Below are positions 7,960 through 42,099 of a stretch of DNA of 64,000 nucleotides, piece after piece. This stretch comes from Candidatus Methanoxibalbensis ujae (GTDB taxonomy: Archaea > Halobacteriota > Syntropharchaeia > Alkanophagales > Methanospirareceae): the NCBI GenBank assembly GCA_026134085.1, contig JAOQIN010000001.1, forward strand, positions 21,344 to 85,343, in the 5' to 3' direction. The notes beneath the pieces were generated by a model. It worked only from the letters and a program-made list of their open reading frames with translations, was not told where the DNA came from and made no database searches. How positions within the stretch are numbered: position 1 is the stretch's first letter; each line of letters starts with the position of its first letter. The translations under genes were made by a program, and so were the position numbers.

Positions 7960-10900
7960 ATGAATGCGCCACCTGAAGCAGAAAAGCGCGATGCAAAATT
8001 GAACAGCGGCGTGAGTGAGTCTTTGCGCAGACTCATAGCAGCAGTCCTCATGGCGGCATGCGGAATCACCTCAATCATCTCAATATTCTGGGCTGAGCCT
8101 TTCAATGCCCAGTTCTTCCTCGGAATTGTGGGTGCATTGTGCATACCAGCGGCATTATTTATACTGTCTGAATCCTATGAGAGAACGCTCATTATCTCAA
8201 TAATTTCCGTTGAATTTTTGATAATAGCATATCCAGTTGTTATATCCTTTGCGCCACATTTTGATTTTGATTTCAACTCCTATGCTGCTGTCGTGGTCAT
8301 ATGTGCTGGCATTCCTGCTGTATATCTCAGCGGTTTTCCGGATGAACGCGGAGCATCACGGCTCACTGTGTTCAATATTCTCTGGGCAATATTCGGAATT
8401 GCGCTGTTTCTCAGAGCTTTCCTGCCTTATCCGTATGTTTTCAGGGAACCTGTGAGATATGGTCCCGATGACCCCGTGTATCACATGCGTCTTGTGGAGA
8501 ACGCGCTCTTGGGCGATCATTTCCCATTCCGCATATTTTATGATGCATACACGTATTTTCCATTTGGCAGCCATCTGCATTTTGCACCTCTTTACGATCA
8601 AATTATGATATTTGCGGCATGGGTTATAGGTATGGGAAATGTAACACATGCTTTAATAGATGCTGTAGGTGCATATTATCCCGCAATTTTGGGAGCATGT
8701 GTTGTTTTTCCTGTTTATTTCATTGGTAAAACGCTTCATAATGAGATTACAGGCATCATCTCATCTGCTCTCGTTGCGGTTATACCGGGGCAGTTCTTCA
8801 ATCGCTCGCTTCTCGGATACACTGATCATCATGTCGCCGAGGTGCTTTTCAGCACGATTGCGATGCTCTTCCTCATTCTCGCAGTGAAGCATGCGAAGGA
8901 TGCGCAAGATCGAGTGAGAGATGTCGGGCGATCGATTCTCCTCGCGGATTTTGATGTTCGGAAGGACTGGGCAGTTGTTTTTTTCGCTTCAGGCGTGATT
9001 CTGCCCATAATAATGCTTCCATGGGCGTGGGGTCTCCTTATCTCATTCGCCTTTTTCTGCATGCTTCCTGTGTTCGCGATATTTGTGAGGGAGGAAGCGA
9101 AACCTCTGTTCTTCGCAATCGCAGCCGGAATATCGCTGGGCGTCTATCTCCTGATGTGGGTTGCTGGACTCATGTTCGCGTTCTTTATATTCATATATGG
9201 CATCCTCCAATACATCATTGATGTGATAAGTGGAAAGGATTTCTCATATTTGTGTGAAGTTCTTGCAGTTGAATATATCATTCCGCCTGTTATGCTCATT
9301 CCCTTTTACAATCTTTCGGCGTTTTATGATATAAAGCATGTGGCGACATTCAGTCTCGGGTTCATTGTTTTCTCATCTCCTGTCATTTTCAGGAGAATTG
9401 TTGAGCGCAGAAGCAGAGTTGCTGCTGTCAGCGCTTCCGTGCGTGGTGGAGGGAAGAGCGGGAGGAGTGGTGGCAGCGGAGGTGGCAGGAAAGCGGGAAC
9501 AGGGGGCGGTGTTGATTTTTTCATGCTTTCTTTTCCGTTTCTGACGCTTTTTCTGATTGCGATTGTCGGGTTTGCGGCGTTTCCATCTGCGACTTCAGCG
9601 GTTTTAGGTGCGTTCCGTGCTCTGGCGCCTTCTGGAGGTGCACAGACAATTGCGGAGGTCAGCCCGCTGTTCACGAGGAACTGGGCCTGGTGGACTGTTG
9701 AGCCGATAACGCTTTTCCTCTCATATCCCACATTTCTGCTGCTTGCATGGACGATCTTTGAGCGCCGTCGCCCCGAGCATCTTCTGATCTTGGTGTGGTG
9801 CATGGCAACGCTCGCAATAATCGGCGGCATAATCCCGACAATTGGACAGAACCGCTTCGGATACTACTTTGCTGTGAGCGCATCGCTTCTCACAGCGTTC
9901 TTCGTGACAAAGACATACGAAGCCATTGATACAGATCTCGGCGTTGAAGCGGTAGCGGAGCGAGGAGAGCGAGGAGAGCGAGGAGAGCGAGGAGAAAAAA
10001 AGACTGCGTTCACTGTGAGACGAGGGGTGAGCGCTGCCAGGAAGAAGGGAAGAAGAGAATACAGAGGAGCAGAGAGAGGCGAGTTTGATGTGATGCCGAT
10101 CGCTTTCGGAATATGCGTGCTGGCGTTGTTGATTGCTGGTGTGAAATATGTGGGATTATCCTCAATACCGGCATGGTTTGCATTTCTCGCAATTTTCGTC
10201 GTTTGGCTGTTCACCCGCCGGGAGAATCGTGGTGAGAAAAGCGAGAAGAACTTGCGCAGAGCGATGATTGCAATACTTCTCATCGCATTCATACTCTTCC
10301 CTTTCCCGCTGAACGCACTCGCAACACAGGGAGATTTTCCCTCAAACGGAAAGCCGGCTCTCATTTATTACTCGCAGTATATGGCATCTGGGCATCAGGG
10401 AGCGCCTGATGACTGGTATGATGCGCTTTTATGGATGAGAAACAACACGCCTGATCCGGGAATTGACTACTACACAACATACAAACTGAATGAGACGACA
10501 GGGCGCTACGATTATCCCGAAAGTGCATATGGTGTGATGAGCTGGTGGGATTACGGGCATATTATCACATTCATCGGACATCGCATCCCCAATGCGAACC
10601 CGTTCCAGGCGGGGATAGGTGGTCCTCCCGTTGTGAAATATTACGATGCAAACGGAGATGGCGGATACACAAGAGGAGAGACAATTGTCGCAGACAAAGA
10701 CGGAAACGGGAAATTTACGGAGGAAGATGCGGTTTTGTTCGGCGTAGTTCCAAGAATCAACGCAAAACTCAGGCGTTTCAGCATAGATGAGATGTATTAT
10801 GATGCCAACGATAACTATAAATATGATAAAGGAGAGGCTATTGTGCGTGACAATGATGGAGACAGCAGGTTCACAGATGGAGATGAGGTTCTGATGGGCG

Positions 10901-11658
10901 AGACTCCGCCTCATAATTCTGTGCTGAGAATTCTGGCGCTGAGACCTGGTGCATGCACATTCCTGCTCGCGCAGAATGAACATATAGCATCCAAAATACT
11001 GAATGAGCTCGGAACACGCTATGTCATCTCGGAGCACAGGATGATGGAATTCACATATGCAGTGTATCCTGTGTGGGCTGGGGAGCCCATTGAGGATTAC
11101 ATTGGCTATGTGCCGGTGGATGGAAAGATTGAGAGGGTATTTAAGCCCAAGTTCTGGCGGTCAATGGAAATAAGATTGCACATTTTTGACGGCTGCGGCG
11201 CGTCATTATCATACGGCAATGAAACATTATATGTGGAGCCGCTGAGACATTACAGGCTTGTGCATGAATCTCCCTCAACAACTGCGACTTTTGGAGATAA
11301 AGAGCTCAAGTTTGTGAAAGTTTTTGAGTATGTGAAAGGGGCACGCATAGTCGGAAACTCACCGAACGGCTCTGTTGTGGAAATATCAACAAATGTGACG
11401 ACGGGAAGCAGAAATTTCACATACGTTCAGCGCACATTCTCAAATGGCTCCTTCTCTTTTGTTGTTCCTTATTCAACGGAATGCCCGAGCCCTATATCCG
11501 TTGAGGAGGGAGGAACAAACTACAGCGTCTGTGCTTCTGTTTACAAACTGAGGATAGGCAATGTGAATGTGACTTCGGGCGAGATCTCATGGACGAGCGA
11601 GAAAGAAGTTGAAGTTCCCGAGCGCGCAGTGCTAAACGGTGGCATTGTTGAGGTGTGA
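7960..11658 (+). CDS. aglB: Archaeal oligosaccharyltransferase AglB (STT3 homolog), unusually long with inserts
   Basis: It has 13+ TM helices and the WWDYGH motif (SWWDYGHIITFIG). Inserts include a Gly-rich stretch (GGGKSGRSGGSGGGRKAGTGGG), an RGERGERGERGE stretch, and two Asp-rich Ca-binding-like repeats (DANGDGGYTRGE...DKDGNGKFTEED; DANDNYKYDKGE...DNDGDSRFTDGD). Confidence 0.8.
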   Translation: MNAPPEAEKRDAKLNSGVSESLRRLIAAVLMAACGITSIISIFWAEPFNAQFFLGIVGALCIPAALFILSESYERTLIISIISVEFLIIAYPVVISFAPHFDFDFNSYAAVVVICAGIPAVYLSGFPDERGASRLTVFNILWAIFGIALFLRAFLPYPYVFREPVRYGPDDPVYHMRLVENALLGDHFPFRIFYDAYTYFPFGSHLHFAPLYDQIMIFAAWVIGMGNVTHALIDAVGAYYPAILGACVVFPVYFIGKTLHNEITGIISSALVAVIPGQFFNRSLLGYTDHHVAEVLFSTIAMLFLILAVKHAKDAQDRVRDVGRSILLADFDVRKDWAVVFFASGVILPIIMLPWAWGLLISFAFFCMLPVFAIFVREEAKPLFFAIAAGISLGVYLLMWVAGLMFAFFIFIYGILQYIIDVISGKDFSYLCEVLAVEYIIPPVMLIPFYNLSAFYDIKHVATFSLGFIVFSSPVIFRRIVERRSRVAAVSASVRGGGKSGRSGGSGGGRKAGTGGGVDFFMLSFPFLTLFLIAIVGFAAFPSATSAVLGAFRALAPSGGAQTIAEVSPLFTRNWAWWTVEPITLFLSYPTFLLLAWTIFERRRPEHLLILVWCMATLAIIGGIIPTIGQNRFGYYFAVSASLLTAFFVTKTYEAIDTDLGVEAVAERGERGERGERGEKKTAFTVRRGVSAARKKGRREYRGAERGEFDVMPIAFGICVLALLIAGVKYVGLSSIPAWFAFLAIFVVWLFTRRENRGEKSEKNLRRAMIAILLIAFILFPFPLNALATQGDFPSNGKPALIYYSQYMASGHQGAPDDWYDALLWMRNNTPDPGIDYYTTYKLNETTGRYDYPESAYGVMSWWDYGHIITFIGHRIPNANPFQAGIGGPPVVKYYDANGDGGYTRGETIVADKDGNGKFTEEDAVLFGVVPRINAKLRRFSIDEMYYDANDNYKYDKGEAIVRDNDGDSRFTDGDEVLMGETPPHNSVLRILALRPGACTFLLAQNEHIASKILNELGTRYVISEHRMMEFTYAVYPVWAGEPIEDYIGYVPVDGKIERVFKPKFWRSMEIRLHIFDGCGASLSYGNETLYVEPLRHYRLVHESPSTTATFGDKELKFVKVFEYVKGARIVGNSPNGSVVEISTNVTTGSRNFTYVQRTFSNGSFSFVVPYSTECPSPISVEEGGTNYSVCASVYKLRIGNVNVTSGEISWTSEKEVEVPERAVLNGGIVEV

Positions 11659-18761: not shown

Positions 18762-18850
18762 AGCGGTGCAATGTGAAGCTGCAATGTGAAGCTGCAATGT
18801 GAAGCGTGATATGAGCGTTGATAATGGTGCGGTGAATGTGGTGCGGTGAA
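18762..18850. repeat. Intergenic tandem repeats (ctgcaatgtgaag x3; gtgcggtgaatg x2)
   Basis: Direct repeats are visible between the LbH gene and uppP. Confidence 0.7.
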
Positions 18851-19707
18851 TGATGCACGCACAGGCATTCCTCATAGGCGTGCTGCAAGGTGTTTTGGAA
18901 TGGCTGCCAGTGAGCAGTGAGGGCGTTATCTTCGTTATGCTCAATATCCTGGGCGCCGACCCGAGAGATGCGCTGTCTTACGCGATATTTCTCCATCTCG
19001 GAACAATGTTTGCATCAGTTCTGAGATTCAAAGGAGAATTTGCTTCAATGATGCGTTATATTGTATGTTCAATGAACCTTATCCGCAGGCGGGGCGGACA
19101 TGAGGAGGATGGTGTGCTGCTGCGTGTTGTTTTCATTGCAACTGCTGCAACCGGGATGACGGGCGTGCCTGTTCTGTTTCTGCTTCACGATCTCTTTGAT
19201 TATGTGAACAGCGTGAGCGGCGGAAGTGCGAGCGCTATAATCACACTTCTCATAGGGGCACTCCTCATTCTCACAGGCGTTGTCATAGGCCTGAGCGGTT
19301 CTGCAGCGTCTGACCACGAGCGATTCAGGAATATGGAGGACATGCGCCCGACTGAGGTTTTTTTTCTCGGCATTGTGCAGGGATTTGCGATTCTGCCCGG
19401 TGTTTCAAGGTCGGGGATGACGATAAGCTATCTGCTGTTGCGAGGAATAAATCAGGAAAGTGCATTGAGAGTGTCCTTTATCATAAGCGTTCCGGCAGTT
19501 CTCGGCGCTGTATCTGTGGAATCTCTGCGGCACCCCTTACCTTATTTCTCACTTAATGCTGCTATCATGTTCCTGACATCTCTCGCAATTGGATATGCAA
19601 CTATGGACATCCTGCTGAAAATTGCATCATCTCTCAATTTCTCAAAATTCTGCGTTTTCATAGGTATGATCGCAATAATGTTCGCAATTTTAATGATGTT
19701 ATATTAA
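18850..19707 (+). CDS. uppP: Undecaprenyl-diphosphatase UppP/BacA
   Basis: It has the EWLPVSSEG motif (compare EFLPISSSGH), 8 TM helices, and a second conserved region PGVSRSGMTI. Confidence 0.7.
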   Translation: MMHAQAFLIGVLQGVLEWLPVSSEGVIFVMLNILGADPRDALSYAIFLHLGTMFASVLRFKGEFASMMRYIVCSMNLIRRRGGHEEDGVLLRVVFIATAATGMTGVPVLFLLHDLFDYVNSVSGGSASAIITLLIGALLILTGVVIGLSGSAASDHERFRNMEDMRPTEVFFLGIVQGFAILPGVSRSGMTISYLLLRGINQESALRVSFIISVPAVLGAVSVESLRHPLPYFSLNAAIMFLTSLAIGYATMDILLKIASSLNFSKFCVFIGMIAIMFAILMMLY

Positions 19708-20269: not shown

Positions 20270-22156
20270 ATGTGTGGGATAATAGGGTATATAGGCGAGG
20301 AGAATGCTGTTTATTTTCTGCTAAAAGGTCTTAAAAACCTTGAATATCGTGGTTACGATTCTGCGGGCATAGCTGTTCTGTCTGATGTGATAAAATGGAA
20401 GAAGGTTGCTGGCAGGGTTGAGGAACTGTGCAGCCGTGTGAACCCGAGAGAAATGAGCGGGCGCATAGGTATAGCTCACACGAGATGGGCGACGCACGGC
20501 GCTGTTACTGAGAGGAATGCGCACCCGCATTTTGATTGCACATTCAGTATAGCTGTTGTGCACAATGGCATCATAGAGAACCACCGGCATTTAAAGGAGA
20601 TTCTGCGTGAGAAGGGGCATAAGTTCAGCAGTGACACGGATTCTGAGGTGATTGCGCATCTGATAGAGGATGCGCTTCTTTTAAACAGGGATTTCGTGAG
20701 CGCGTGCATGCATGCTTTCTCATCGCTTGAAGGAAGTTTCGCCGCAATTGTGATGAAAGAGGGAGAGCATAAAATAGTTGGTGTGAGAAAGGACTCTCCG
20801 CTCGTCATCGGTGTCTCCGCGAGGGGCATATTCCTCGCATCCGACATACCTTCGTTTCTTGAGTGGACAAATCGCGTGATATATCTGCACAACTACGACA
20901 TGGTCGTCGTTGATGCTGATCCGGCACCGGATGCGTGCGGTGATGTGCGCAATGTGCGCGATATGTGCGATGTGCGCGATGTTAACAATCATTGCGGTGC
21001 CAGTCATTGCGGTGCGCTCAGTGCGCTGACGGAGAAGCATGCGAGCATCCGGATATATAATCTCAATGAGGGACTCGTTCAAAGACCTGTTGATTCTGTG
21101 GAGGTGGACATAGAACAGGCGAAAAAAGGAGAATTCAGGCATTTCATGCTGAAGGAGATAACAGAACAGGCGGACACAATAAAAAAAGCGATACAACAGG
21201 ATGAGGAAACTGTGAAGAATGTGATTGATGCCATAAAAAACGCGTTCGGTATATTTTTCATTGGATGTGGCTCAAGTTATCACGCATGTCTCGCCGGCAG
21301 TTATCTGTTTTCTCGCATTGCAAAGACGCATGTTAACGCAGTTCTCGCATCTGAATTTGAGAATTATGAGCATTTCCTCACAGATAAAACGCTTGTTTTT
21401 GCTGTATCGCAGTCTGGAGAGACGGCAGATGTGCTTGATGCTGTGCGTGTTGCGAGAGACAGGGGGAGCAGGGTGATAAGCATTGTGAATATGATGGGAT
21501 GCTCGCTCACGAGGGAAAGCGATGAATGCCTGTTGATGAACGCGGGTCCTGAGATATGTGTTCTCTCAACAAAAACATACACATCGCAGGTGACTTTGAT
21601 GGCGATGCTCGCATATGCACTCGCTGGAAATTATGATGATTTTGTATCTGAGGTCAAGCGATTGTATCTTGACATTTACAATCTCACCTCAAGAACTATG
21701 AGGGAGCGTCTGTGTGAAGTGGCGAAGATGCTCGCTGACAAAGAGCATATATATCTGATAGGCAGAGGTCTGCAGTATGCCACAGCGCTTGAGGCTGCTC
21801 TCAAAATAAAGGAGGTCTCATACATACATGCGGAGGCGTTTGCAGGTGGCGAGCTGAAACACGGACCCCTCGCTTTGATAGATAAGGGAACTCCCTGCAT
21901 AGTTTTCGTTTCAAAGGACAACGCCTCAAAAATAATCTCAAACGCGGAGGAAGTAAGAGCGAGGGGAGGATACATAATTGGAATATCTTCAGTGAATTAT
22001 GACTTTGACTGCTGGATAAAAGTGCCGGACAGTGATATGCTCAACCCCGTTGTTCAGATAATACCCGTCCAGATACTCGCTTATCAACTTGCACTGCTGC
22101 GCGGACTCGACCCGGATAAGCCGAGAAACCTCGCCAAAAGCGTGACAGTTACCTGA
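20270..22156 (+). CDS. glmS: Glutamine--fructose-6-phosphate aminotransferase GlmS with in-frame repeat insert
   Basis: It starts MCGIIGYIG with the N-terminal nucleophile Cys, has two SIS domains, and is 628 aa. The insert DACGDVRNVRDMCDVRDVNNHCGASHCGA is encoded by DNA tandem repeats at about 20930-21010. Confidence 0.9.
   Translation: MCGIIGYIGEENAVYFLLKGLKNLEYRGYDSAGIAVLSDVIKWKKVAGRVEELCSRVNPREMSGRIGIAHTRWATHGAVTERNAHPHFDCTFSIAVVHNGIIENHRHLKEILREKGHKFSSDTDSEVIAHLIEDALLLNRDFVSACMHAFSSLEGSFAAIVMKEGEHKIVGVRKDSPLVIGVSARGIFLASDIPSFLEWTNRVIYLHNYDMVVVDADPAPDACGDVRNVRDMCDVRDVNNHCGASHCGALSALTEKHASIRIYNLNEGLVQRPVDSVEVDIEQAKKGEFRHFMLKEITEQADTIKKAIQQDEETVKNVIDAIKNAFGIFFIGCGSSYHACLAGSYLFSRIAKTHVNAVLASEFENYEHFLTDKTLVFAVSQSGETADVLDAVRVARDRGSRVISIVNMMGCSLTRESDECLLMNAGPEICVLSTKTYTSQVTLMAMLAYALAGNYDDFVSEVKRLYLDIYNLTSRTMRERLCEVAKMLADKEHIYLIGRGLQYATALEAALKIKEVSYIHAEAFAGGELKHGPLALIDKGTPCIVFVSKDNASKIISNAEEVRARGGYIIGISSVNYDFDCWIKVPDSDMLNPVVQIIPVQILAYQLALLRGLDPDKPRNLAKSVTVT
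20930..21012 (+). repeat. In-frame tandem repeats inside glmS (gtgcgcaatgtgcgcgatatgtgcgatgtgcgcgatgtt; aatcattgcggtgccagtcattgcggtgcg)
   Basis: The repeats are visible in the DNA and maintain the reading frame. Confidence 0.7.
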
Positions 22157-22206: not shown

Positions 22207-22872
22207 ATGTCATCGACTGACTCTGATGACTCAGCTGATTCTGATGACTCAGGAGAGTTCTATCACTTTCACTGGCGAAGCGTTATGCTTTTATTTTTTT
22301 CAGATTTTATTTTTGGCATGGGTGATGGCAGACTCAATATGACCGTGCTCGGTGAAAAATTGCGAGCGAACACAGAGGCTGTGAAGTTTGTCATAAAATT
22401 CGTTTCAATCATTATTGCGTTTTACACAGCATATTATCTGCTCTCAGCGGGCGAATCTCAGTTTATGTCGTCGCTCAAAAGCATTACAGCATCCATTACT
22501 GCTGCTGTCCTGTCTCTTTTCGGCATAAATACGAGTGTAACAGGAGCGCTTATCAGTGTGGATGGATTCTCGCTTGAGATCATAGATGAATGCACAGCGA
22601 TTTTCTCATCAATAGTGTATTCAGCATGCGTCATAGCATATCCAACATCATGGAGGAAAAGATGCATAGGAATCGCCATCGGCATACCATCCCTTTATGC
22701 ACTCAACATCACGAGACTCGTGATCCTGACGATGGTGGGCATACACAGTCTGAGCGCATTTGACTTCCTGCATGTCTACCTCTGGCAGGCATCCTTCATA
22801 ATATTTGTTGTTCTCATGTTCATGCTGTGGCTCATGTTCGTCGTGCAACATCGCAACGGAGACAGGGAGTGA
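22207..22872 (+). CDS. Exosortase/archaeosortase-family-like polytopic membrane protein (candidate)
   Basis: It has multiple TM helices. A Cys lies in a TM helix (EIIDECTAIF), followed by a basic loop (SWRKRC) and N-x-x-R (ALNITRLVIL). That spacing is reminiscent of the exosortase Cys/Arg/Asn catalytic residues. The true start is probably internal (MLLFF or MTVLGEK). Confidence 0.35.
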   Translation: MSSTDSDDSADSDDSGEFYHFHWRSVMLLFFSDFIFGMGDGRLNMTVLGEKLRANTEAVKFVIKFVSIIIAFYTAYYLLSAGESQFMSSLKSITASITAAVLSLFGINTSVTGALISVDGFSLEIIDECTAIFSSIVYSACVIAYPTSWRKRCIGIAIGIPSLYALNITRLVILTMVGIHSLSAFDFLHVYLWQASFIIFVVLMFMLWLMFVVQHRNGDRE

Positions 22873-22933
22873 GAATGAGAGTGAGAATGAATGAGAATGA
22901 AAACAAAAACAAAAAAAAGAGAGGGAGCGAGAA

Positions 22934-23566
22934 ATGGAAATAAGAATGGAAGCTCAAGCATTGAAAGATGCTGCGAAGTTCCTCATTTTTTTCTTATGCG
23001 CATCTGCAGCACTTCTGTCGCTCTGGTGGTTTGCAGGCAGGTTTTATCAGGATATCGTTTTCATATGCGGAAAGCATATACTGCTTGCGATGGGATACAC
23101 GCACGCTCAGATATACGCTGTGAGGTTGCGGGAAGCATATCTCACGAACTTCAACATTGTTGCACTGCTCTCACTCGCGATTGCAACGCCATCTCTTCGC
23201 ATCCGCGAGCGATTCAAAATGCTTGCTTACGGCATACCTCTCCTCTTCACAATACATCTCACGGACTTTGTCGCTCATTTCCCCGCTGTCATACACAATG
23301 ATGAGTTTGCGAAGTTCATTGTTCTCTCCATAGGTGTTGTCGGCATGGCAGCGCCCTTTGTGGTCTGGTTCTGCATATCTTATGATGCGCTGTTCAAACC
23401 ACTGCTTGCACATCGTACTGCTGTTTATCAATGCCCCGTCTGCAATATGGAAACACACGATATCATCGCCCATATAGTAGAGGCGCACGGTAAAAAGGCT
23501 ATTAAAAGCAGAAAAGTGCGGGAATTCCTCAAAAAACATCCTGAACTGAACTCATCAAAAAGGTAA
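22934..23566 (+). CDS. Membrane protein with C-terminal C2H2-like zinc-finger tail
   Basis: It has 5-6 TM helices followed by CPVCNMETHDIIAHIVEAH (CxxC...H-x4-H-x5-H). Confidence 0.35.
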   Translation: MEIRMEAQALKDAAKFLIFFLCASAALLSLWWFAGRFYQDIVFICGKHILLAMGYTHAQIYAVRLREAYLTNFNIVALLSLAIATPSLRIRERFKMLAYGIPLLFTIHLTDFVAHFPAVIHNDEFAKFIVLSIGVVGMAAPFVVWFCISYDALFKPLLAHRTAVYQCPVCNMETHDIIAHIVEAHGKKAIKSRKVREFLKKHPELNSSKR

Positions 23567-23728
23567 TCCTCTTTCCATCTCATATATATACGATTTTCTC
23601 CATCAATTGTTTCAAATTTGTTGCAAATATGTGAAATTTTTATTTATGTTTATTGAAATATTGCTGACAACATTGGTTGAGTTTAAATACCCCATCGGAG
23701 TTTTAAGTTTTTGGAGGTGATGCAGATA

Positions 23729-25678
23729 ATGAAATATCGTGTGGTATTGCTTATCGCCGCGGTGATCACGTTCTCCGCAACCGCAATCGCAACAATGAGC
23801 GGCAGTTCAGTGGAGCCGATGAGTCATTCTTCAGACTCAACTTTCAATCCAAGCACTGTGGGAGCGGATATGACTGTAAACATTGCATTGAACGTATCCA
23901 ACAGCGGTAATGACAGTATAACTGTGGTCTATCTCTACGAGTCCTATCCTTATGATAACTTCGATAATTTGAGCTATCTGACACCACCGGATGGCTGGAC
24001 AGCCTCAAAGGCAGTTTCGGGAGGTCAGGAGTATATAAAATGGGAGAGCACAAATGAATCGCAGTATAATATACCTGCGGAAGAAAGTTTGCAGTTCAGC
24101 TTCTCGGTGAAAACGCCTGCTTCAGGAGGCACATACACATGGAGTGTCAGGACATATGATAATGCAGGAGGCTATTTTGACGACACTGTTGGTCTTGAGG
24201 TGGATGCCACTCCTCCGCAGATCGGCAATATAACGCCGAACAAATCAGCGCCTGTTTACACGAAATATTGCGAAGAGATATGGGTGAACTTCACAACGGA
24301 CAGCTCTGCGGAGAACAACCCATATAACATCACGATATACAGAGATGGGGACATTGCGAACATCACTTCAGGAACAAATATAACAGAGGATGCCGCAGCA
24401 CACACGGACGGCAGATGGAGCTTCCTCATACACATAGACACGAATGAAAGCTGCAACTACACCGTGCGTGTTACGGTTGAGGATGAGTATGGAAACAGGA
24501 ACACCTCTGAAGAAACAGATGCGGTTATCATAGACAATGAGGCGCCCTCAGTGGACATAACATCGCCGACGGAATCGTCACCATACATATTGCCCGTAAC
24601 GGAGGACAATGTCTCAGTCAGCTTTGATGTGTCTGATAACAAGCCATTCGCACTGCAGTTTTACAACATTTCAGTTGGCGATGTCTGGTGCAACGGCACA
24701 CTTCCATCGCAGAACACCTCAATGAATGTCTCATGCGACATATCATCACTGTCGGAGGGCTGGCATGACATCACCGTATATGTGAGCGACAAATCTGGAA
24801 ATGAAGCAAGCGATACTGAGGTCAATGCAGTTTTGGTTGATAAAACAGCGCCCTCGCAGGTCACAGATCTGACAGTGGAATACAATGAGACCTCAGGATG
24901 TATTGACCTGAGCTGGAGTGCTGCAAATGATGCTCTGAGCGGCGTTGCATATTATCGTATATACAGAAATGACACAAAATGCTCAAACCTACCAGGAGAC
25001 CTTGTTGCTGTTGTGGATGCCAGCGATACATCGTGGACAGATGAAGCCTTCCTTGAGGATGGGCAGACATATTATTATGTGGTGACTGCGGTTGACAGTG
25101 CCGGAAACGAGAACAAATCAATAACAGGCGAGAACTGCGGCAGCGCTACATACACAGCGAAATATTACTCAATATCACTGACCAAAGGATGGAACCTCAT
25201 ATCACTGCCGCTTATTCCTGAAAACGAGTCCATAGACAGCGTTCTCGCAGATTGCATGGATGAGATAGACAGTGTGCATGCATATGATGCCCGGAACGGG
25301 ACATGGCTTACCTGGAGACCCTACTTTGGCGGCACGCTTACGACTATGACAACAGGAAAGGGATACTGGATATTTATGGATGATGCCTGCACATTCAGAT
25401 ACAGAGGCTATTACCTGAATCCTGGAGCGCTGCCACCGTCATATGAGGTTGTGGAGGGATGGAACCTCATCGGATTCCACTCATTGCGCACAAATGTCAC
25501 ACCGGCGCAATATCTTGAAGGGGTCCGCTACACAGAACCTCTCTACGGTTATGAGGATGGCAGATGGATACTGTATTGCAATGGTCTATACTGCGACAGG
25601 AATTTCATGGATATAGGCAAGGGCTACTGGGTTTATGTCACCCAACCGGGCACAATCGTGCCGCACGAAGAGCGGTGA
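23729..25678 (+). CDS. Secreted/cell-surface protein with signal peptide and fibronectin-III-like domain
   Basis: The N-terminus MKYRVVLLIAAVITFSATAIA is a signal peptide. A GGAGG RBS lies about 10 nt upstream of this ATG. It has an FN3-like segment (YYRIYRND...DTSWTDEAFLEDGQTYYYVVTAVDSAGNE) and many N-x-S/T sequons. Confidence 0.55.
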   Translation: MKYRVVLLIAAVITFSATAIATMSGSSVEPMSHSSDSTFNPSTVGADMTVNIALNVSNSGNDSITVVYLYESYPYDNFDNLSYLTPPDGWTASKAVSGGQEYIKWESTNESQYNIPAEESLQFSFSVKTPASGGTYTWSVRTYDNAGGYFDDTVGLEVDATPPQIGNITPNKSAPVYTKYCEEIWVNFTTDSSAENNPYNITIYRDGDIANITSGTNITEDAAAHTDGRWSFLIHIDTNESCNYTVRVTVEDEYGNRNTSEETDAVIIDNEAPSVDITSPTESSPYILPVTEDNVSVSFDVSDNKPFALQFYNISVGDVWCNGTLPSQNTSMNVSCDISSLSEGWHDITVYVSDKSGNEASDTEVNAVLVDKTAPSQVTDLTVEYNETSGCIDLSWSAANDALSGVAYYRIYRNDTKCSNLPGDLVAVVDASDTSWTDEAFLEDGQTYYYVVTAVDSAGNENKSITGENCGSATYTAKYYSISLTKGWNLISLPLIPENESIDSVLADCMDEIDSVHAYDARNGTWLTWRPYFGGTLTTMTTGKGYWIFMDDACTFRYRGYYLNPGALPPSYEVVEGWNLIGFHSLRTNVTPAQYLEGVRYTEPLYGYEDGRWILYCNGLYCDRNFMDIGKGYWVYVTQPGTIVPHEER

Positions 25679-25689
25679 ATGTGTATGAT

Positions 25690-25745
25690 TTGATTTCCTT
25701 TTTTTCTTTTTTGTTTTTGTTTTTTTTCTTTTTTGGGCTCGTGTA
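25690..25745 (+). terminator. Oligo-T terminator-like tract after the secreted protein gene
   Basis: The tract reads tttcctttttttcttttttgtttttgttttttttcttttttggg. Confidence 0.4.
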
Positions 25746-25800
25746 GGTGTCGGTGTCGGTGAGCTGGCGTGAAGAAATGAAGCGGAGGAGGTGTATATGA

Positions 25801-26868
25801 ATGAGATTGTATGTATTTGCAGCAGTTCTGTTATTTACCTGTGCAGTGTGCGGACAGCCATCACCACCTTGTGATGCAGTTTTCTGGGGAAATGTCACGA
25901 TAAACGGCAGTATCGCCCCTAATGGAACAATCGCTTCGGCATGGATAAATAATGTGATGATGGACAGTTGCGAAACGGAGAATTGGAAGGGGACCGCGTA
26001 TGGAAAGGTGTATAATTACAAGCTGCATGTTGGAGGAAAAAGCGGCGACATCGTTGAGTTCAAGATATACAACGCGACTGTTCACACAGACACGCTTGAC
26101 TGTGGAGAGACAACAAATCTCGACCTGCATCTCTGGGATGAGGATGTGGATGAAAGCGCACAGATCTCAATAAACTACACAGAAGGCAAAGCCAACCTGA
26201 CAGTTGAGTGGACAGCAGGACGTGACACGACCGGCATCTCGCATTATGAATTGTGGCGCAGATATGAGAGCGAAAATTTCACACTCGTCGCAAGGTTGAA
26301 CGCAACAGATAGGGAATACACAGATACAAACCTCCTCTCAGGTAACTACACATATAAACTCTGCACTGTTGACTTCGTGGGCAACAAGAACTGCACAGAG
26401 GCAAATGTAACCGTCGTTGGTGGAGTGGAGGGAGGAAAAATTATCGGGAGCGTGACATACACATGCAATAACACGGGCATTCCGAATGTGAGTGTGTCGC
26501 TTATGAGAGACGGGGAGATAATAAGAGACACGAAAACGAACGAAACGGGACAGTTCTTATTTGAGGACCTTAGTGAGGGCAATTACTCAATAAAAGTGTC
26601 AAAACCTCACTTCTTTGATAATGAAACTGATGTCTCCTTGATCGCAGGAGATGAATCCGACATATCATTGAGGATGTGGATCAAAGGAGATCTCAACAAC
26701 AACGGCAGAAGCGCTGATGCAGGTGATGTATCCCTCATGCTCAAGGGCTCAGTTCTCATTATAGAGCCGGACTGGAGATATGACCTGAACAACAACGGAA
26801 AACTCGCAGATGCAGGTGATGTCCTCCTGATCCTGAAGGCTTCCGTCGGTTATATAGAGCTGATATAA
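25801..26868 (+). CDS. Secreted protein with FN3 domain, carboxypeptidase-regulatory/Cna-B-like domain, and two C-terminal dockerin-like repeats
   Basis: It has a signal peptide (MRLYVFAAVLLFTCAVCG). It has an FN3 domain (YELWRRYE...GNYTYKLCTVDFVGNKN) and a CarbopepD_reg-like segment (GSVTYTCNNTGIPNVSVSLMRDGEII...TGQFLFEDLSEGNYSIKVSKPHF). The dockerin repeats are DLNNNGRSADAGDV and DLNNNGKLADAGDV. Confidence 0.55.
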   Translation: MRLYVFAAVLLFTCAVCGQPSPPCDAVFWGNVTINGSIAPNGTIASAWINNVMMDSCETENWKGTAYGKVYNYKLHVGGKSGDIVEFKIYNATVHTDTLDCGETTNLDLHLWDEDVDESAQISINYTEGKANLTVEWTAGRDTTGISHYELWRRYESENFTLVARLNATDREYTDTNLLSGNYTYKLCTVDFVGNKNCTEANVTVVGGVEGGKIIGSVTYTCNNTGIPNVSVSLMRDGEIIRDTKTNETGQFLFEDLSEGNYSIKVSKPHFFDNETDVSLIAGDESDISLRMWIKGDLNNNGRSADAGDVSLMLKGSVLIIEPDWRYDLNNNGKLADAGDVLLILKASVGYIELI

Positions 26869-26957
26869 CTCCCCCTCCTCTAACCTTCTTTTTCTTTATG
26901 TTTCAATAAACACAATAAAATCAAAAATTATTCCTCTCCTCATCCCCTCATCATTTT

Positions 26958-26995
26958 CTCATTCCTGAAGTTTTTCTCATTCCTGAAGTTAAAAG
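26958..26995. repeat. Direct repeat tttttctcattcctgaagt x2
   Basis: It is visible in the 690-bp non-coding region downstream of the dockerin gene. Confidence 0.6.
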
Positions 26996-27554
26996 CAGCT
27001 AAAAGCAAAAAACGGATACTGACCAAAGGGACTGAAACAGGATTAGAGAATGCTTCACGGAGATGCCGTATTCGTGGGCGCGTCGGCTTGAAAAAATAGA
27101 TGGCTTAAAAAATCTGAAGTTGTGAGACTGGACGCTCTTGACATATCACGAAGTTTTACAATGTGCTGGAGCATGCAGAATGGGTTAAAGTGCAACATCC
27201 GTGTTCTCATATTCGGACCAGCAGTGCGAGTTCCTGTTCAGCTCATATTAACGCGCGAGGTGCTGCGGAAGCAACTGCTCCACGCTCGTTCGAGTGCTGT
27301 ATTTCTTCTGAGAGGAGTGAGACTTTTTTCGCACAGACTTTTTTCGCACAAAAAGAAAACGTGCAAAAAGAAAAATCAGTCAGCAAAATCATGCCTTTAA
27401 CCTCCAGTTTTGCGAAATCCTCTTTTTTCATACCCGGCCCCCCACCGTCTTTTGTCGTTCATAATTTTTATGAAAAATTCTCAAATAGTTTTTTTATATC
27501 TCTCGCTTTTAGAGAGCAGGGAGAAACATCAGTGATAAAAAAAAGGGAGGAATT

Positions 27555-28649
27555 ATGGCAGACAAAAGAAGTTTCCCGGTATGCTGCTATTGTGGTGCGT
27601 GTGCTGCGTTCATAGATTTCAAGAAGTATAAGGAGGAGGAAGTGGTGTTTGACAAGGGCTGTGGCGGCATGGTGTCAAAAGGCTTCTGTTTCAGCTTCTG
27701 TCCTCGCTCATTCGCAGTTTGCCGTTTATGTGAGGGGGAGTGCCCGAGGATGGACGTATGTGATTTCAGCCCTCTCCCCTCCCGGCATGAAGAGCGAGTT
27801 CTTGGATACTATAAAGAAATGATATGTGCAAGGGCAGCGGACGGGAGGACGAGAGAGGTGGGACAGGATGGAAGTGCCGTAACTGCAATGCTATGTGAGG
27901 CGTTGAGAAGTGGATTTATAGATGCTGCCGTTGTCGCTGTGCGGACAGAGGACTGGAAAGCCGAACCTTTCATCGCCACCACACCGGAAGAGGTTTTGCG
28001 CGGCGGAGGTTCAAAATACACAGCATGCCCTTCTGTTCTTGGTGTATGGGAGGCGATAGACCGCGGCTATGAAAATATCGCAATGGTCGGCACGGGCTGT
28101 AATATAGAGGCGGTGAGAAGACTTCAGGCGTTGCATGACCCTGCTTTAGAGCTTGACAGAGTGAAAGTCCTGATCGGGCTTTTCTGCACTGAGGCTTTCT
28201 GGCACCGTGATCTGGTGGTGTTCCTCGCTGAACGGGGAATAGATATCAAAGAGGTGGAGAGGTTTTATGTTTCAAAGGGGAGATTCATTGTGGTTACAAA
28301 GGACAGAGAGCTCAGTATTCCCACCGAAGAACTGGAATCCTGCGTGCGTGCGACATGCAAAATATGTGAGGATTTCACCGCACAGCTTGCGGATGTTTCA
28401 GCAGGCTCTTCCGGTTCGCCGGAAGGATACACTTCATTGATAATAAGGACAAGAGCTGGAGAGGAGCTCGTAAGTGTCTCAAAAAAGGCAATAGAAACGA
28501 AGAAACTGGATGATGCCGGTATAAAAAAGATAGAAAGGCTTGCTTTTAATAAGAAGATGAGGAATTACGGCAGGATACTGGATCAGATGGGGATCTGTTC
28601 CGCGTGCTTAACCAATCCGTATTCTTTTACGTTGCAAACAGGTGATTGA
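27555..28649 (+). CDS. FrhB/FpoF-family protein (coenzyme F420 hydrogenase beta-subunit-like FAD/F420-binding Fe-S protein)
   Basis: It has an N-terminal Cys cluster (CCYCGACAAF...CGG...CPRSFAVCRLCEGECP) and the family-typical central region (GQDGSAVTAMLCEAL...GSKYTACPSVL...GTGCNIEA...LIGLFCTEAF). It overlaps the downstream GltS-domain gene by 8 nt. Confidence 0.6.
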   Translation: MADKRSFPVCCYCGACAAFIDFKKYKEEEVVFDKGCGGMVSKGFCFSFCPRSFAVCRLCEGECPRMDVCDFSPLPSRHEERVLGYYKEMICARAADGRTREVGQDGSAVTAMLCEALRSGFIDAAVVAVRTEDWKAEPFIATTPEEVLRGGGSKYTACPSVLGVWEAIDRGYENIAMVGTGCNIEAVRRLQALHDPALELDRVKVLIGLFCTEAFWHRDLVVFLAERGIDIKEVERFYVSKGRFIVVTKDRELSIPTEELESCVRATCKICEDFTAQLADVSAGSSGSPEGYTSLIIRTRAGEELVSVSKKAIETKKLDDAGIKKIERLAFNKKMRNYGRILDQMGICSACLTNPYSFTLQTGD

Positions 28650-37371: not shown

Positions 37372-38230
37372 CGGCTCTCAGCAGCACTGCAGTGATTGTG
37401 CAAAGCGGAGTTTCAGGATCGCCTCCCACATCACTTTCTACCGCGGACATCTCACACTATCTGCTGCTTATTACAACCTCCTCCTGTTCCGATCAGAAGG
37501 ACGGCCCCCATCAACCCCTCTCAGTCGGGAACCTTCAAACCCTCTCCATTTAAAACTTACCACGTAAACCACGTAACGCCTCCTCACAAAGACATGAATC
37601 GCACCAGCCCCTTCTCCACCTTCACACAATCTTCCCCGCACCTAAGCGATGCAGACTTTATACAATGTTTATCAGGTCTTGCACATCTTTAAGAAACAAG
37701 CCAGCTCAGGATCCTGTCTCTCTGAAGCTGCAAATAGGTGACATTTTCCGCCATTGCACAATGGCAACAGCAATTCGAGCTATCACAGGCTTTTTTACTT
37801 TCAAACTTAAGATTGTGAATTGATCCATGTTTGCTATCCCCGCCATGTGAACTCCGCCTCCTTCACCTCTGAGTTGAAGAGCTTTCTGAAAGGGCGACAT
37901 CGCCGAGAGATTCCGCATACGGGGCATACGGAGCAGGGTGGAGCGAACTGCGTGAAGAGGTGAAAGCAAGCTTCCTCTTTCGTTTCAGAGTCAAGACTTG
38001 TCTTTCAGTAATGAACAGCTGATTTGCCAACTTTTAAGAGTAAAGCGATTCTTCCGAGATGAGAGGAGATACATTGCCGCAACTTATGGACACTTTTTTC
38101 CTCTCAATGCATTCAGTAACTCAAGCAATCCATTTCGCCATAGATAGTTGTTCAATTATTTATGTTGCTTGATGCTCGGACACATCGGATATGCCAGAGT
38201 ATATTTATATGAGAAGGAAAATTAAAGAGA

Positions 38231-38581
38231 TTGGAGGGTCAGCGGGCAATGTATGCGTTGACGGGAGATGTGCTTTTTGCGTCATTCCGTAGAGGTCTCA
38301 GGAACGGAAATTGGAAGAAGCTGAAAGCGAGTGAGAGGGCTTTTTTCAAGGCAGCGCTTTTCTATCTGAGGCGAGGCGGAAGGATTGTGAGCGTGTCTGT
38401 TTTGGAGAAGCTCCGTTTGCTCATAGAGGAATTGAATGAGACTAGAAGAATGAGGATATTTAGAAAGGGATTCGAGAAAGCGATTGAAATTTTGAACGCG
38501 TGCGAAAATTTTGCATGGTATCCTTATTTAAAGAAATGGCTAAAAGAACCTGATTATATATTCTGGCTCGGAACAATATAG
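38231..38581 (+). CDS. Hypothetical small basic protein
   Basis: It is 116 aa with no recognisable motif. It lies at the left edge of the island. Confidence 0.3.
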   Translation: MEGQRAMYALTGDVLFASFRRGLRNGNWKKLKASERAFFKAALFYLRRGGRIVSVSVLEKLRLLIEELNETRRMRIFRKGFEKAIEILNACENFAWYPYLKKWLKEPDYIFWLGTI

Positions 38582-38739
38582 AAAATTATACTCACGTGCC
38601 AAAAATCTGAGTAAGAGAGTCCGCTTGATGGGAGGTGAGAAGCATACAAAATGAGTACGCAATGCAGATATTGGGAGGATATACGCAATGCGTATATGAA
38701 CGAGTTATCTGCCATTCCACTCAATGGAGTTGTTAGCCT

Positions 38740-40068
38740 ATGGAACAAATTTTCATAGCTTGGGGACGTAATAAAAACTTGGCCATTAAAGTGGCAGAGA
38801 AATTGAAAGAAAAGGGGTATAATCCCATTGTAGGTGGTGATGAAAAGAACCCGAAGGAGAAAGATTATTACTTAGGCAAAGAAGTTCTTAACCAAATTAA
38901 AAAGGCATCTAAGGCTATTATTCTTGCTCAACAATTAAGACCTAACCTAATGTTCGAATTTGGAATATTATTTGAAAGACTAAACCCTGCATCAATCTTT
39001 ATTTTTTTAATTGGAATTAAAAGAAGTAAATTTTTTACAGAAGCTTCAGACCTCGCTGGCATTAGATGTTTTGAAGTCCCTACTGATAAAAAAGATATAG
39101 AGGAAAGAGCAAACTTTATTGTTGAGAAATTTGTTGAAAATTTAGTTCCTACAATTATTGATCCCGAAAGTTTATTTATCAAGTGGGATGACTGGAAAAA
39201 TAAATTTAATTCTATTAAAAAAGGTGAAGTAAAAGAAAGTCAAGTAGTTTTGAATCAAGTAATTTTACACAGTCTTCAACCAGCCTACTATTTTGGCGAA
39301 ATAAATTTTTTAAAAGATTTTGTGTCTAAATTAGAATTGGATTCATCTTTAAAAACAATCATACAATCAGCATGTGAATATTATATGCTAACTGAATTAC
39401 CAGATTCAAGGCCTGAATTGGGCGAATTGCTCCCGTTAAAAGAGAGTTTGAACAATCCTATATCTATCAAATCGACAATTAAAAACTGGGTAGAACTTGT
39501 AAGAAATGACTTCCTTGGTTTGGTTTATCGTAGAATGTCAGAATCTTTGAAAGAGCAAAAAATAAATTATCTCGAAAAATCTAAGAAAGCTTTTGAGAAT
39601 TCAATAAGATATCTTGAAAAAATCCCAGAAAAGAGAGCATGTTGGCATTTATGGAAAGGATATATTTATAGAAACCTTGGAAGAACATATTGTGAACTCA
39701 ACAATCGTGAGAAAGGTCTGGAATTTCTTAAGGAATCCCAAAAACATAGAAGAGAAGCTTATTCAGCGTTTAAAGCATTAAATGTTTCAGACATTGTCTT
39801 AAATCAGATATTTTTGGAGATCAAAATAGTGGATTTAGATATTATGAGATATAGCACTGAAGAATTAGAATCGAAAAAGCAAAAATTGACAGAAATTATA
39901 GAAGCATTAAAAGTCCAGGGAAAACTCATAGTGAGACCTCTAATTTTATGGAATAAAGTAATAGTTTTGGCTAAAGATGTGGCTGAGAGAGAAGCTAACT
40001 TGCAAGGTATATATAGAGACTTAGAGCAAATTGAAAATCACATAAGAAAGTTGAAAGGAGGCTCTTGA
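38740..40068 (+). CDS. Protein with N-terminal TIR/DUF4062-like flavodoxin-fold domain and C-terminal alpha-helical (TPR-like) domain
   Basis: The N-terminus has the pattern IFIAWG...LA..VAEKLKEKGY.....GG......VL..IKKASKAIILAQ...NLMFEFGILFERL. That is a beta-strand/helix alternation like TIR-family domains (VFISY...IVVLS..SxWCxxEL). The rest is helical with W/Y-rich repeats. It is my assignment from pattern only. Confidence 0.35.
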   Translation: MEQIFIAWGRNKNLAIKVAEKLKEKGYNPIVGGDEKNPKEKDYYLGKEVLNQIKKASKAIILAQQLRPNLMFEFGILFERLNPASIFIFLIGIKRSKFFTEASDLAGIRCFEVPTDKKDIEERANFIVEKFVENLVPTIIDPESLFIKWDDWKNKFNSIKKGEVKESQVVLNQVILHSLQPAYYFGEINFLKDFVSKLELDSSLKTIIQSACEYYMLTELPDSRPELGELLPLKESLNNPISIKSTIKNWVELVRNDFLGLVYRRMSESLKEQKINYLEKSKKAFENSIRYLEKIPEKRACWHLWKGYIYRNLGRTYCELNNREKGLEFLKESQKHRREAYSAFKALNVSDIVLNQIFLEIKIVDLDIMRYSTEELESKKQKLTEIIEALKVQGKLIVRPLILWNKVIVLAKDVAEREANLQGIYRDLEQIENHIRKLKGGS

Positions 40069-40727
40069 TGCCAAAAGTTAAAAGAATTAATTTTAACAAA
40101 CAGAATATCAAAGCTATAGCTTTGGACTTTGATGGAGTAATTGTTGACTCACAGGATTTACACCTCAAAGCTTGGATAGAGACTTTGAAAAAATACCGTA
40201 ATAATTTTAAAGTAAGTTTAAGAGACATTACTGGACTATCAGTGTCAGAATTTATTCAAAGACTGAATATTCCACCAGAAGAGGGAGTAAAAATGGCGGA
40301 ATCGAAAAGAAAATATGTTGTTCAACTTGCCAGAATACATCCTCCACCGTTGTATACAAATGTTATCGAAACTTTACAAATCCTATCTAACTATTATAAA
40401 CTTGCGCTTGTAACCTCATGTGAAACAGACTTAGTCTATTTTGTGTTGGAGTACTATAATTTGAAAAAATTGTTTGAGGTTCTCATCCTTGAGGGTGATT
40501 ATAATAAGCCCAAACCAGATCCGGAACCTTACTTAGAGTGTCTGAAAAGACTGGGACTAGATGCAAAATCTGTGATTGCTATAGAGGACTCTCCAACTGG
40601 AATAAAGTCAGCCAAAAAGGCAGGTCTATTTACAATAGCTATCTCTACTACATTTAATAAAACTCAGCTATTTGAGGCTGATATTATTATAACTAATTTT
40701 AAAGAGTTATTATGTTTAATCCCATAA
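40065..40727 (+). CDS. HAD-superfamily phosphatase (beta-PGM/CbbY-like subfamily IA)
   Basis: It has DFDGVIVDS (motif I, DxD), a T/S in motif II, and K...EDSPTGIKSAKKAG (motifs III/IV). Its start overlaps the upstream gene stop (ATGA). Confidence 0.7.
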   Translation: MMPKVKRINFNKQNIKAIALDFDGVIVDSQDLHLKAWIETLKKYRNNFKVSLRDITGLSVSEFIQRLNIPPEEGVKMAESKRKYVVQLARIHPPPLYTNVIETLQILSNYYKLALVTSCETDLVYFVLEYYNLKKLFEVLILEGDYNKPKPDPEPYLECLKRLGLDAKSVIAIEDSPTGIKSAKKAGLFTIAISTTFNKTQLFEADIIITNFKELLCLIP

Positions 40728-40860
40728 GGCATGGAACATCCCATAAGGCATGGAACGGCAGATAACAGCGGGTATGTGGTTCGCTTACGCTCACCCAAAC
40801 CCTTACTGGCTTCGCATACCCGCAAAACGTTAGGCGAAATGCCTTGATGGGGAGAATCTA
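40728..40860. repeat. Island repeat element copy A (contains internal direct repeat atcccataaggcatggaac x2; ends ...ctggcttcgcatacccgcaaaacGTTAGGCgaaatgcc)
   Basis: It is homologous to copies B-D and ends in a GTTRRRY-type motif about 26 nt before the next ATG. Confidence 0.55.
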
Positions 40861-41490: not shown

Positions 41491-41606
41491 TTATTATTTC
41501 GTCTAACAGTATCTGGCTTCGGTGCTTCGCACCTCCGCCCAAATTCCTCGCTCGGAACTTCGGATATGCCCAGAACGTTAAGTGAAATTCGGCTCATGCG
41601 TTAAGA
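41491..41606. repeat. Island repeat element copy B (starts cgTCTAACag...; ...ctggcttcggtgcttcgc...ccgcccaaattcc...aacttcggatatgcccagaacGTTAAGTgaaattcgg)
   Basis: It is homologous to A, C and D. It has a 5' RYYYAAC-like motif and a 3' GTTRRRY-like motif. Confidence 0.55.
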
Positions 41607-41646
41607 ATAAAATATAACTATAATAATAATTAAATAATGATATAGT

Positions 41647-41871
41647 ATGCTCGTAACATTTGAGATATACAATGATGGTGAATACTGGTGTGCAAGAGGT
41701 ATAGGAGTGGATATATTCACACAAGGAAAAACACTTGATGAGTTGATGGAGAATATAAAAGAGGCTGTTGAAGTACATTATGGAGAATTATTGGAAAAAG
41801 GTGAAGATATAAGGATATTATCAATATCAGAAATAGAGGTGCATTCAACTGCCAAAGTTACCAGTCGTTAG
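41647..41871 (+). CDS. hicB: HicB-like antitoxin (UPF0150 family N-terminal domain)
   Basis: The segment FEIYNDGEYWCARGIGVDIFTQGKTLDELMENIKEAVEVHY matches the HicB/UPF0150 pattern (Y.a..pdlpG..s.G.T.eEa..n..EAi). Confidence 0.5.
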   Translation: MLVTFEIYNDGEYWCARGIGVDIFTQGKTLDELMENIKEAVEVHYGELLEKGEDIRILSISEIEVHSTAKVTSR

Positions 41872-41893
41872 TGGGGATAAACTAATCAAACTA

Positions 41894-42097: not shown

Positions 42098-42099
42098 GA

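Follow-up and report, generated by a model that had tools for sequence, protein, structure and literature searches.

What does a predicted archaeosortase do in a gene cluster whose secreted proteins carry no recognizable sorting tail? This question is raised by a stretch of 64,000 nucleotides (hereafter the window; GenBank assembly GCA_026134085.1, contig JAOQIN010000001.1, positions 21,344–85,343) from Candidatus Methanoxibalbensis ujae, a deep-branching thermophilic species of the ANME-1c anaerobic methanotrophic archaea from the Pescadero Basin vents (PMC9894754). Four co-oriented open reading frames (ORFs) lie on the + strand directly behind glmS, as had been described in an earlier interpretation made from the letters alone (the sequence-only reading): P1 (22207–22872), P2 (22934–23566), P3 (23711–25678) and P4 (25801–26868). 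The locus probably holds a two-gene archaeosortase module of the clade of exosortase H (XrtH) and archaeosortase B (ArtB), in which P1 would be the catalytic enzyme and P2 its dead, non-catalytic counterpart, with P3 and P4 secreted without being sortase substrates and P4 probably docked on a cohesin.

P1 is a polytopic protein of 221 residues with five hydrophobic segments. It matches the general family models PF09721 (48.2 bits, cutoff 25.7) and TIGR04178 (53.7 bits, cutoff 23), and passes the curated cutoff of the XrtH model TIGR04177 (111.2 bits, cutoff 86). The best-scoring model is that of ArtB, TIGR04144, at 115.9 bits, yet its curated cutoff of 150 is missed, and P1 is therefore not an ArtB member by the NCBIfam definition; the ArtA model gives 36.9 bits (cutoff 75). 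The Cys, basic-loop and N-x-x-R motifs from which the sequence-only reading had proposed an exosortase/archaeosortase-like protein are all present, as IIDEC129, SWRKRC and N167-I-T-R170, followed by H189VYLWQ, and the proposal is borne out by the profile matches above curated cutoffs as well as by residue conservation. An alignment of 23 homologues shows no variation at Cys129, Asn167, Arg170 or His189, and the Cys, Arg and His of the triad proposed for the family (10.1101/2023.06.07.544157) are 100% conserved in 157 sortase sequences. Judged by these profiles and residues, P1 is a bona fide exosortase/archaeosortase of the XrtH/ArtB clade. Nearly all of its 169 homologues come from ANME-1/Methanophagales metagenomes, where they are labelled exosortase H (NCBI) or archaeosortase B (JGI). 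The 90%-identity cluster of P1 has members under the NCBI name “exosortase H [Candidatus Methanoxibalbensis ujae]”; because automatic annotation already says so, the sortase identity of P1 is not new.

The gene behind P1 encodes a membrane protein of 210 residues, P2, which is the constant partner of the sortase and itself a degenerate sortase paralogue, a relationship that the sequence-only reading had missed. We compared 25 distinct archaeal loci, comprising 21 GTDB representatives (L006–L026) together with L003, L035, L037 and the window type. In 24 of them the gene directly behind the sortase encodes a P2 homologue, and the two ORFs usually overlap; in the window, P2 begins 62 nucleotides (nt) downstream of P1. 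An exhaustive profile search for the partner family returned 129 representative clusters, about 22 of which are single chains of 320–390 residues, built of a sortase domain followed by a partner domain. These fusions occur in ANME-2c (Ca. Methanogaster), Methanosarcinales, Chloroflexota and Desulfobacterales, and all six that were tested match sortase models N-terminally. A Methanophagales contig (L006) has two partner paralogues, at 3032–3547 and 4672–5181, downstream of one sortase.

P2 has no Pfam domain match, and a comparison of the partner with the sortase by hhalign on shallow alignments reached a probability of only 28%, a lead for deeper profiles. Deep profiles built from 98 partner and 157 sortase domain sequences align along 142 collinear columns (probability 98.0%, E = 2.4e-13). 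With every fusion protein removed from both sets the probability was 97.1%, against 1.8–2.0% for reversed-profile controls. Independently of hhalign, individual members of the partner family match the models of ArtE (E = 2e-5), ArtD and the pacearchaeosortases. The sortase motif IIDEC129 falls in an eight-residue deletion of the partner, Arg170 corresponds to Asp111 and His189 to Val130; the scaffold positions A-[YT]-P, Gly159/Gly100 and P..L[YF] are common to both. By this alignment, P2 is a sortase paralogue that has lost all three catalytic residues. Near-invariance across 56 diverse representatives of the partner family is confined to W, Y, L, G, P and W. With no polar residue kept family-wide, P2 is best described as a catalytically dead sortase paralogue.

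The family overlaps with an existing annotation, NF041730 (“exosortase H-associated membrane protein”), which is matched by 25 of the 56 members (best E = 9e-9). P2 itself scores 9.7 bits (E = 0.66) against this model, under the curated cutoff of 35; it reaches the NF041730 family only transitively, through the diverse members, and would be a divergent representative. The Eisenbacteria and Saccharimonadaceae ORFs that the hidden Markov model (HMM) of the ANME partner finds beside XrtH do not match NF041730. A literature search found no paper on the partner as a dead sortase paralogue, on its fusions or on its zinc finger, some of which database entries may note.

The tail of P2 (residues ~164–210; 23423–23566) is made up of a putative C2H2 zinc finger and a basic helical segment ending in HPEL. 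Within the sequence C167PVC170...H175...H180...H185, alignment of homologues identifies C167, C170, H180 and H185 as the conserved zinc ligands (C167-x2-C170-x9-H180-x4-H185), so the C2H2-like tail reported by the sequence-only reading is real and conserved. The motif, C-x2-C-x(9-12)-H-x4-H in P2 and its homologues, is found in 36 of 66 standalone and 18 of 21 fusion partner representatives, which indicates that the zinc finger is the common state and has been lost in many ANME-1a/b-type loci. In an AlphaFold2 (AF2) model of P2 the tail is the most confident part, with a predicted local distance difference test score (pLDDT) of 78–89, and forms a beta-hairpin (residues 165–174) and a helix (residues 177–185), the beta-beta-alpha order of a C2H2 finger. 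The overall predicted template-modelling score of this model is only 0.35, and a Foldseek search with it against the PDB, tried as a route to the fold of P2, gave no significant match. No Pfam zinc-finger model passes on the tail, zf-Di19 matching weakly (15.8 bits against a cutoff of 27.5, E = 0.017). A zinc-finger function of the tail is predicted from motif and model, and a cytoplasmic location would agree with the basic character of the partner at either end.

The likely form of the sorting signal can be seen in relatives of P1. Secreted proteins encoded beside homologous sortases repeatedly end in V-P-x-[LM]-[TM]-P-[IVMA]-G, followed by a hydrophobic helix and an Arg/Lys cluster. This tail is present on genes neighbouring the sortase in 14 of the 25 loci, usually just upstream. 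Its bearer lies at most 100 nt upstream of the sortase in L010, L011, L014, L015, L017, L022 and L023, where it is mostly a vWA(DUF1194) protein with DUF11 repeats of ~540–680 residues; in L003, L007, L016, L018 and L021 a tail-bearing protein is close to the sortase. An HMM of the tail also detects the out-of-sample tails of L035 and L037 (E = 5e-9, 1e-7 and 5e-5). VPxxxP, the signature of ArtB, and xPxLxxxG, that of XrtH, are combined in the ANME-1 tail, which weakly matches the recognition region of the “midcut-by-XrtH” model NF033207. Tails at bacterial XrtH loci read VPM[LM]xTWG. The literature search returned no paper on the ANME-1 tail consensus or on a cohesin protein carrying such a tail (described below), part of which database curators may have noted.

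PGF-CTERM-type proteins are also encoded around XrtH-like sortases, directly upstream (108 to 254 nt) in L009 (8913–9656), L020 (8331–9089) and L037 (5514–5918), and nearby in L003, L008, L011 and L017. One review states that ANME-1 lack ArtA (PMC5244752). The upstream PGF-CTERM genes raise the possibility that the XrtH-like sortase may process PGF-CTERM proteins too.

P3 (655 residues, or 652 from the likely ATG start at 23720) and P4 (355 residues) each contain one N-terminal hydrophobic segment, judged by inspection to be a signal peptide, and no C-terminal one. Their N-x-S/T sequons number 24 and 16, respectively, whereas 8.6 and 4.4 are expected from composition; this is a 3–4-fold enrichment, and cytoplasmic proteins of the window have 0–2. 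The description of the pair as secreted and sequon-rich is thereby upheld, as is the statement that neither protein has a PGF-CTERM-like tail: no tripartite tail of this or another type was found on P3 or P4, so they are probably not sortase substrates. The label ‘FN3’ fits P3 only at the borderline (fn3, 24.1 bits at residues 382–470, against a PF00041 cutoff of 25) and does not fit P4, which has no fn3 (PF00041) match. Further domains of the Ig-like or beta-sandwich kind score above cutoff in both proteins, which may be termed Ig-like/FN3-like surface proteins: P3 matches Big_13 (63 bits) and Big_3_3, and P4 matches CarboxypepD_reg (49 bits) and SdrD_B (38 bits), with an Ig-like domain below threshold in its Ig/FN3-like region.

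The C terminus of P3 (25160–25678) is formed by a module of ~160–170 residues with two ‘GWNLI[SG]...GKGYW[IV]’ repeats (‘G.GYW’ in relatives), for which no Pfam match was obtained even at E ≤ 10. Iterative searching with jackhmmer recovered the module in L011, L017, L018 (four proteins), L020, L037 and L033/L034. In the first five of these loci it forms the C terminus of large, secreted proteins encoded near the sortase, for example at 2063–6724 in L011, 2157–6866 in L017, 3824–8095 in L020 and 9490–12846 in L037. The module is an undescribed domain that may serve surface attachment.

The C-terminal module of P4 (26677–26868) contains the two repeats exactly as quoted in the sequence-only reading, DLNNNGRSADAGDV beginning at residue 297 and DLNNNGKLADAGDV at residue 328, 31 residues apart. 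They follow the pattern DLNNNG.(S/L)ADAGDV, are conserved in two homologues, and conform to the dockerin layout of a duplicated segment of ~22 residues, each copy an EF-hand-like D-x-N-x-[ND]-G loop plus a helix, with ~30-residue spacing. When the module was compared with the PDB by phmmer, the sole match was a type I dockerin, 3UL4_B (E = 0.18), over nearly the full length, the Ca-loop of P4 being one residue longer. A Pfam-validated archaeal dockerin of L037 does little better in the same database (E = 0.01–0.3). Aligned by hhalign with five bona fide dockerins, the module matches with 71% probability and with both Ca-loops in register; the score of 27.1 exceeds that of all 200 column shuffles (9.8 ± 2.2), so the match rests on residue order and not on composition. 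A homologue search with the C-terminal 77 residues gave two proteins only, and a deep dockerin alignment was therefore not possible. On this evidence, the module is dockerin-like rather than a proven dockerin.

A possible receptor for such a module is suggested by L037, in which a cohesin + Big_7 protein ends in ...VPLLGPPA, a transmembrane (TM) segment and KKTKK, the sortase-type tail detected at E = 5e-5. It adjoins a cohesin + Dockerin_1 protein, and 3–5 kb downstream of the two is a sortase whose partner has the zinc finger. Cohesins are also encoded at related ANME-1 loci. The tail-bearing cohesin suggests a two-tier attachment, in which dockerin proteins such as P4 would be held at the surface by a sortase-anchored cohesin. 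The view that the gene combination is unusual for archaea is not supported. Loci throughout ANME-1 and outside it keep the sortase–partner pair, and ANME-1 are reported to be rich in dockerin and cohesin domains (PMC5244752, PMC9012536), so the combination is to be expected for the clade.

Several observations weigh against the reading of the locus given here. No ORF of at least 60 residues in the window has a VPxLTPxG-type tail (best match E = 2.3, spurious), and the cognate substrate is thus encoded elsewhere in the genome or missing; activity of P1 in this genome is accordingly a prediction. One candidate, the ORF at 4772–5926 (−), has a signal-like N terminus and a C-terminal hydrophobic tail, and was rejected as polytopic and transporter-like, judged by eye to be of the major facilitator superfamily type. 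The N terminus of the P1 ORF is acidic (MSSTDSDDSADSDDSGEF...), and all homologues are Lys/Arg-rich there. The first 37–44 codons of the ORF (22207–22340) include a hydrophobic stretch, and NCBI annotates versions of 184 and 177 residues that start at M38 (nt 22318) or M45 (nt 22339); either may be the true start, the other option being a lineage-specific N terminus. A P1–P2 pseudo-dimer or complex is most likely, as argued from synteny, fusion and homology only. For P4, no match to Pfam Dockerin_1 (PF00404) was obtained with the full protein (E ≤ 1) or with the isolated 64-residue module (E ≤ 10), so that the dockerin claim, backed by the repeats and the profile–profile match, is weakly supported and fails the Dockerin_1 search by which the sequence-only reading had meant it to be judged. 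A three-sequence profile of the module found no match in the PDB, an AF2 model of P4 from a three-sequence alignment was unusable (mean pLDDT 36), and no cohesin was found among the window ORFs scanned, a scan that was incomplete for small ORFs. Finally, orthologues of P3 and P4 adjoin the sortase pair only in very close relatives, the near-identical L033 and L034.

This last point also favours a coincidental neighbourhood, in which the sortase pair and P3/P4 share a cell-envelope region and nothing more, with neither a direct nor an indirect functional link. Over the 25 loci the partner is the sole invariant neighbour of the sortase, intergenic gaps of 122–144 nt separate P2, P3 and P4, and the synteny with L033 breaks right behind P4, all as coincidence would have it. 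Against this, secreted surface proteins recur around these sortases, among them P3-module, PGF-CTERM and cohesin/dockerin proteins, an enrichment seen without genome-wide background frequencies; we regard coincidence as unlikely, although it keeps appreciable weight. A closer link than the one proposed, with P3 and/or P4 as non-canonical substrates recognized without a C-terminal TM tail, had been suggested by the sequence-only reading. It would account for two immediately adjacent, co-oriented genes in a window that holds no canonical substrate. However, P3 and P4 lack both a C-terminal hydrophobic segment and a basic cluster, the P3-module proteins of other loci likewise end without a tail, and the candidate substrates near homologous sortases all end in the canonical tripartite tail (VPxLTPxG, TM helix and basic cluster) and are usually encoded immediately upstream, by a gene that has no counterpart in the window. 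All described exosortase/archaeosortase signals are tripartite (10.1101/2023.06.07.544157), and substrates of a tailless kind are very improbable.

The remaining alternative concerns P2, which might have an activity of its own, for example presenting or flipping a lipid acceptor through H108, D111 and H115, or acting as a zinc-finger regulator. These residues (the last within H115-F-P) are invariant in 14 ANME-1 partners, and nucleic acid or protein are conceivable ligands of a C2H2 finger. The broader family is not conserved at these positions (His in 70% at H108, Asp in 50% at D111), and the six positions that alone are near-invariant in the 56 diverse members leave, apart from the zinc ligands, nothing that could be catalytic throughout the family. 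An active P2 is accordingly improbable, though less so than tailless substrates.

The preferred account, a catalytic sortase with a dead partner, would proceed as follows. P1 is predicted to act as a catalytic cysteine endopeptidase or transpeptidase that, by analogy with ArtA, recognizes a C-terminal tripartite signal and removes the TM helix, the mature protein staying attached to the membrane, probably by a lipid. P2 would be an ancient sortase duplicate that kept the membrane scaffold and lost the Cys (by the eight-residue deletion), the Arg and the His; it most likely serves as a non-catalytic subunit that forms a pseudo-dimer with P1, equivalent to the one fused chain of other lineages. 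P3 and P4 would be secreted by the Sec route and heavily N-glycosylated without being sortase substrates. The dockerin-like module of P4 would probably mediate non-covalent docking to a cohesin protein whose gene lies elsewhere, and the double ‘GWNLI...GYW’ module of P3 may be another surface-attachment domain.

A wider generalization is tentative and rather doubtful as a whole. XrtH/ArtB-type sortases may be obligate two-part enzymes, composed of an active and a dead paralogue, which are two proteins in ANME-1 and one chain in ANME-2c, Chloroflexota and Desulfobacterales; the zinc finger would couple anchoring to the cell interior, and the enzymes would anchor cohesin scaffolds and vWA-DUF11 adhesins on which dockerin glycoproteins such as P4 assemble. 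If this is true, the two-part sortase would give a concrete molecular footing to the surface, rich in cohesins and dockerins, that is thought to mediate methane-oxidising consortia.

What is new here is the recognition that the partner is a sortase paralogue, dead, often fused and bearing a zinc finger, together with the ANME-1 tail consensus and the example of a cohesin with a sorting tail. Exosortase/archaeosortase systems are widespread, but ArtA alone has been studied experimentally. A dead paralogue as constant neighbour, often fused and usually zinc-fingered, leads to a specific and testable model of a pseudo-dimeric sortase, and explains an otherwise ‘hypothetical’ gene across archaea and bacteria. 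The sorting signal, VPxLTPxG-CTERM, is defined for ANME-1, syntrophic methane oxidisers that are not in culture, and the link of the sortase to cohesin-bearing and adhesin-like proteins suggests how the abundant cohesin/dockerin proteins of ANME-1 may be organized at the surface.

The genes just upstream of the locus fit a cell-envelope glycoprotein neighbourhood. They include an AglB oligosaccharyltransferase ~10 kb away (7960–11658, +; Pfam AglB_core-like, STT3 and AglB_L1), a BacA/UppP-type polyprenyl-diphosphate phosphatase for lipid-carrier recycling (18850–19707, +; Pfam BacA on the L033 orthologue), a hexapeptide transferase and glmS itself (20270–22156, +), which encodes glutamine-fructose-6-phosphate aminotransferase (Pfam GATase_6/7 and SIS on the L033 orthologue). 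L033 (GCA_053938205.1) is a near-identical contig, with 97.5% identity over 14.7 kb and the gene order kept. The synteny stops exactly behind the P4 stop codon (window 26866–27555, L033 from 14657 onward), beyond which come FrhB-like and glutamate-synthase-like genes in the window and other genes in L033, a strain-level rearrangement breakpoint.

Three further features of the window lie apart from the locus. A probable defence or mobile island, at 38000–44000, has a low GC content (0.35 against ~0.46 elsewhere); its genes specify a CAP12/Pycsar-type TIR-domain protein (38740–40068), a HAD hydrolase, an ion-channel-like protein, RecG-C/helix-turn-helix fragments and an MNT-type nucleotidyltransferase (43439–43759). 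ARAGORN predicts a tRNA of undetermined identity with a four-base anticodon, ‘tgcc’, at 56420–56508 (−), which may be an intron-containing archaeal tRNA mis-parsed under bacterial settings. An ORF of 673 residues at 49647–51668 (+), with a hydrophobic N terminus and zero Pfam matches, may encode an uncharacterised envelope protein.

Among known systems, the module closely recalls that of XrtH (TIGR04177), whose targets carry IPTLxxWG-CTERM tails: P1 passes the XrtH cutoff and the NCBI name agrees, a partner membrane-protein gene follows the sortase and diverse members of its family match NF041730, and the tails of relatives share the P-x-L-x-x-x-G core with the bacterial VPM[LM]xTWG. It differs in that P2 falls far short of the NF041730 cutoff and in that the ANME-1 tails have Pro and Ile/Val/Met in place of the bacterial x and Trp (V-P-x-L-T-P-[IVM]-G). 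The likeness to ArtB, with its VPXXXP-CTERM targets, lies in the best bit score of P1, in the JGI name of many homologues and in tails that literally fit V-P-x-x-x-P (VPVLMP, VPTLTP and VPALTP, for example); the score under the curated cutoff of 150 sets P1 apart. ArtA of Haloferax volcanii, which processes PGF-CTERM proteins, is the sole experimentally studied model of the cleavage and lipid attachment of N-glycosylated surface proteins (10.1101/2023.06.07.544157). It belongs to the same superfamily and has the same Cys/Arg/His triad as P1, but is longer, has no known dead-paralogue partner and recognizes a different signal, and P1 scores below the ArtA cutoff.

In intramembrane proteolysis, rhomboid and iRhom are an active enzyme and its inactive paralogue. 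The pairing is similar in that a catalytically dead paralogue is kept beside the active enzyme or fused with it; fold and chemistry are unrelated, and the comparison is an analogy only, the role of P2 being a prediction. Cellulosome scaffoldins can likewise be anchored by a sortase, as in the cohesin protein ScaE of Ruminococcus flavefaciens, which has an LPXTG signal. There the sorting enzyme, sortase A, is unrelated to archaeosortases, and P4 departs from canonical dockerins in its Ca-loops, one residue longer, in the failed Dockerin_1 match and in having no cognate cohesin identified in the window. Like these scaffoldins and non-cellulosomal archaeal cohesin–dockerin pairs, however, P4 has at its end a duplicated Ca-loop module that is dockerin-like, and the L037 cohesin protein, with its sorting tail and dockerin neighbours, follows the same order of covalent anchoring and then cohesin–dockerin docking.

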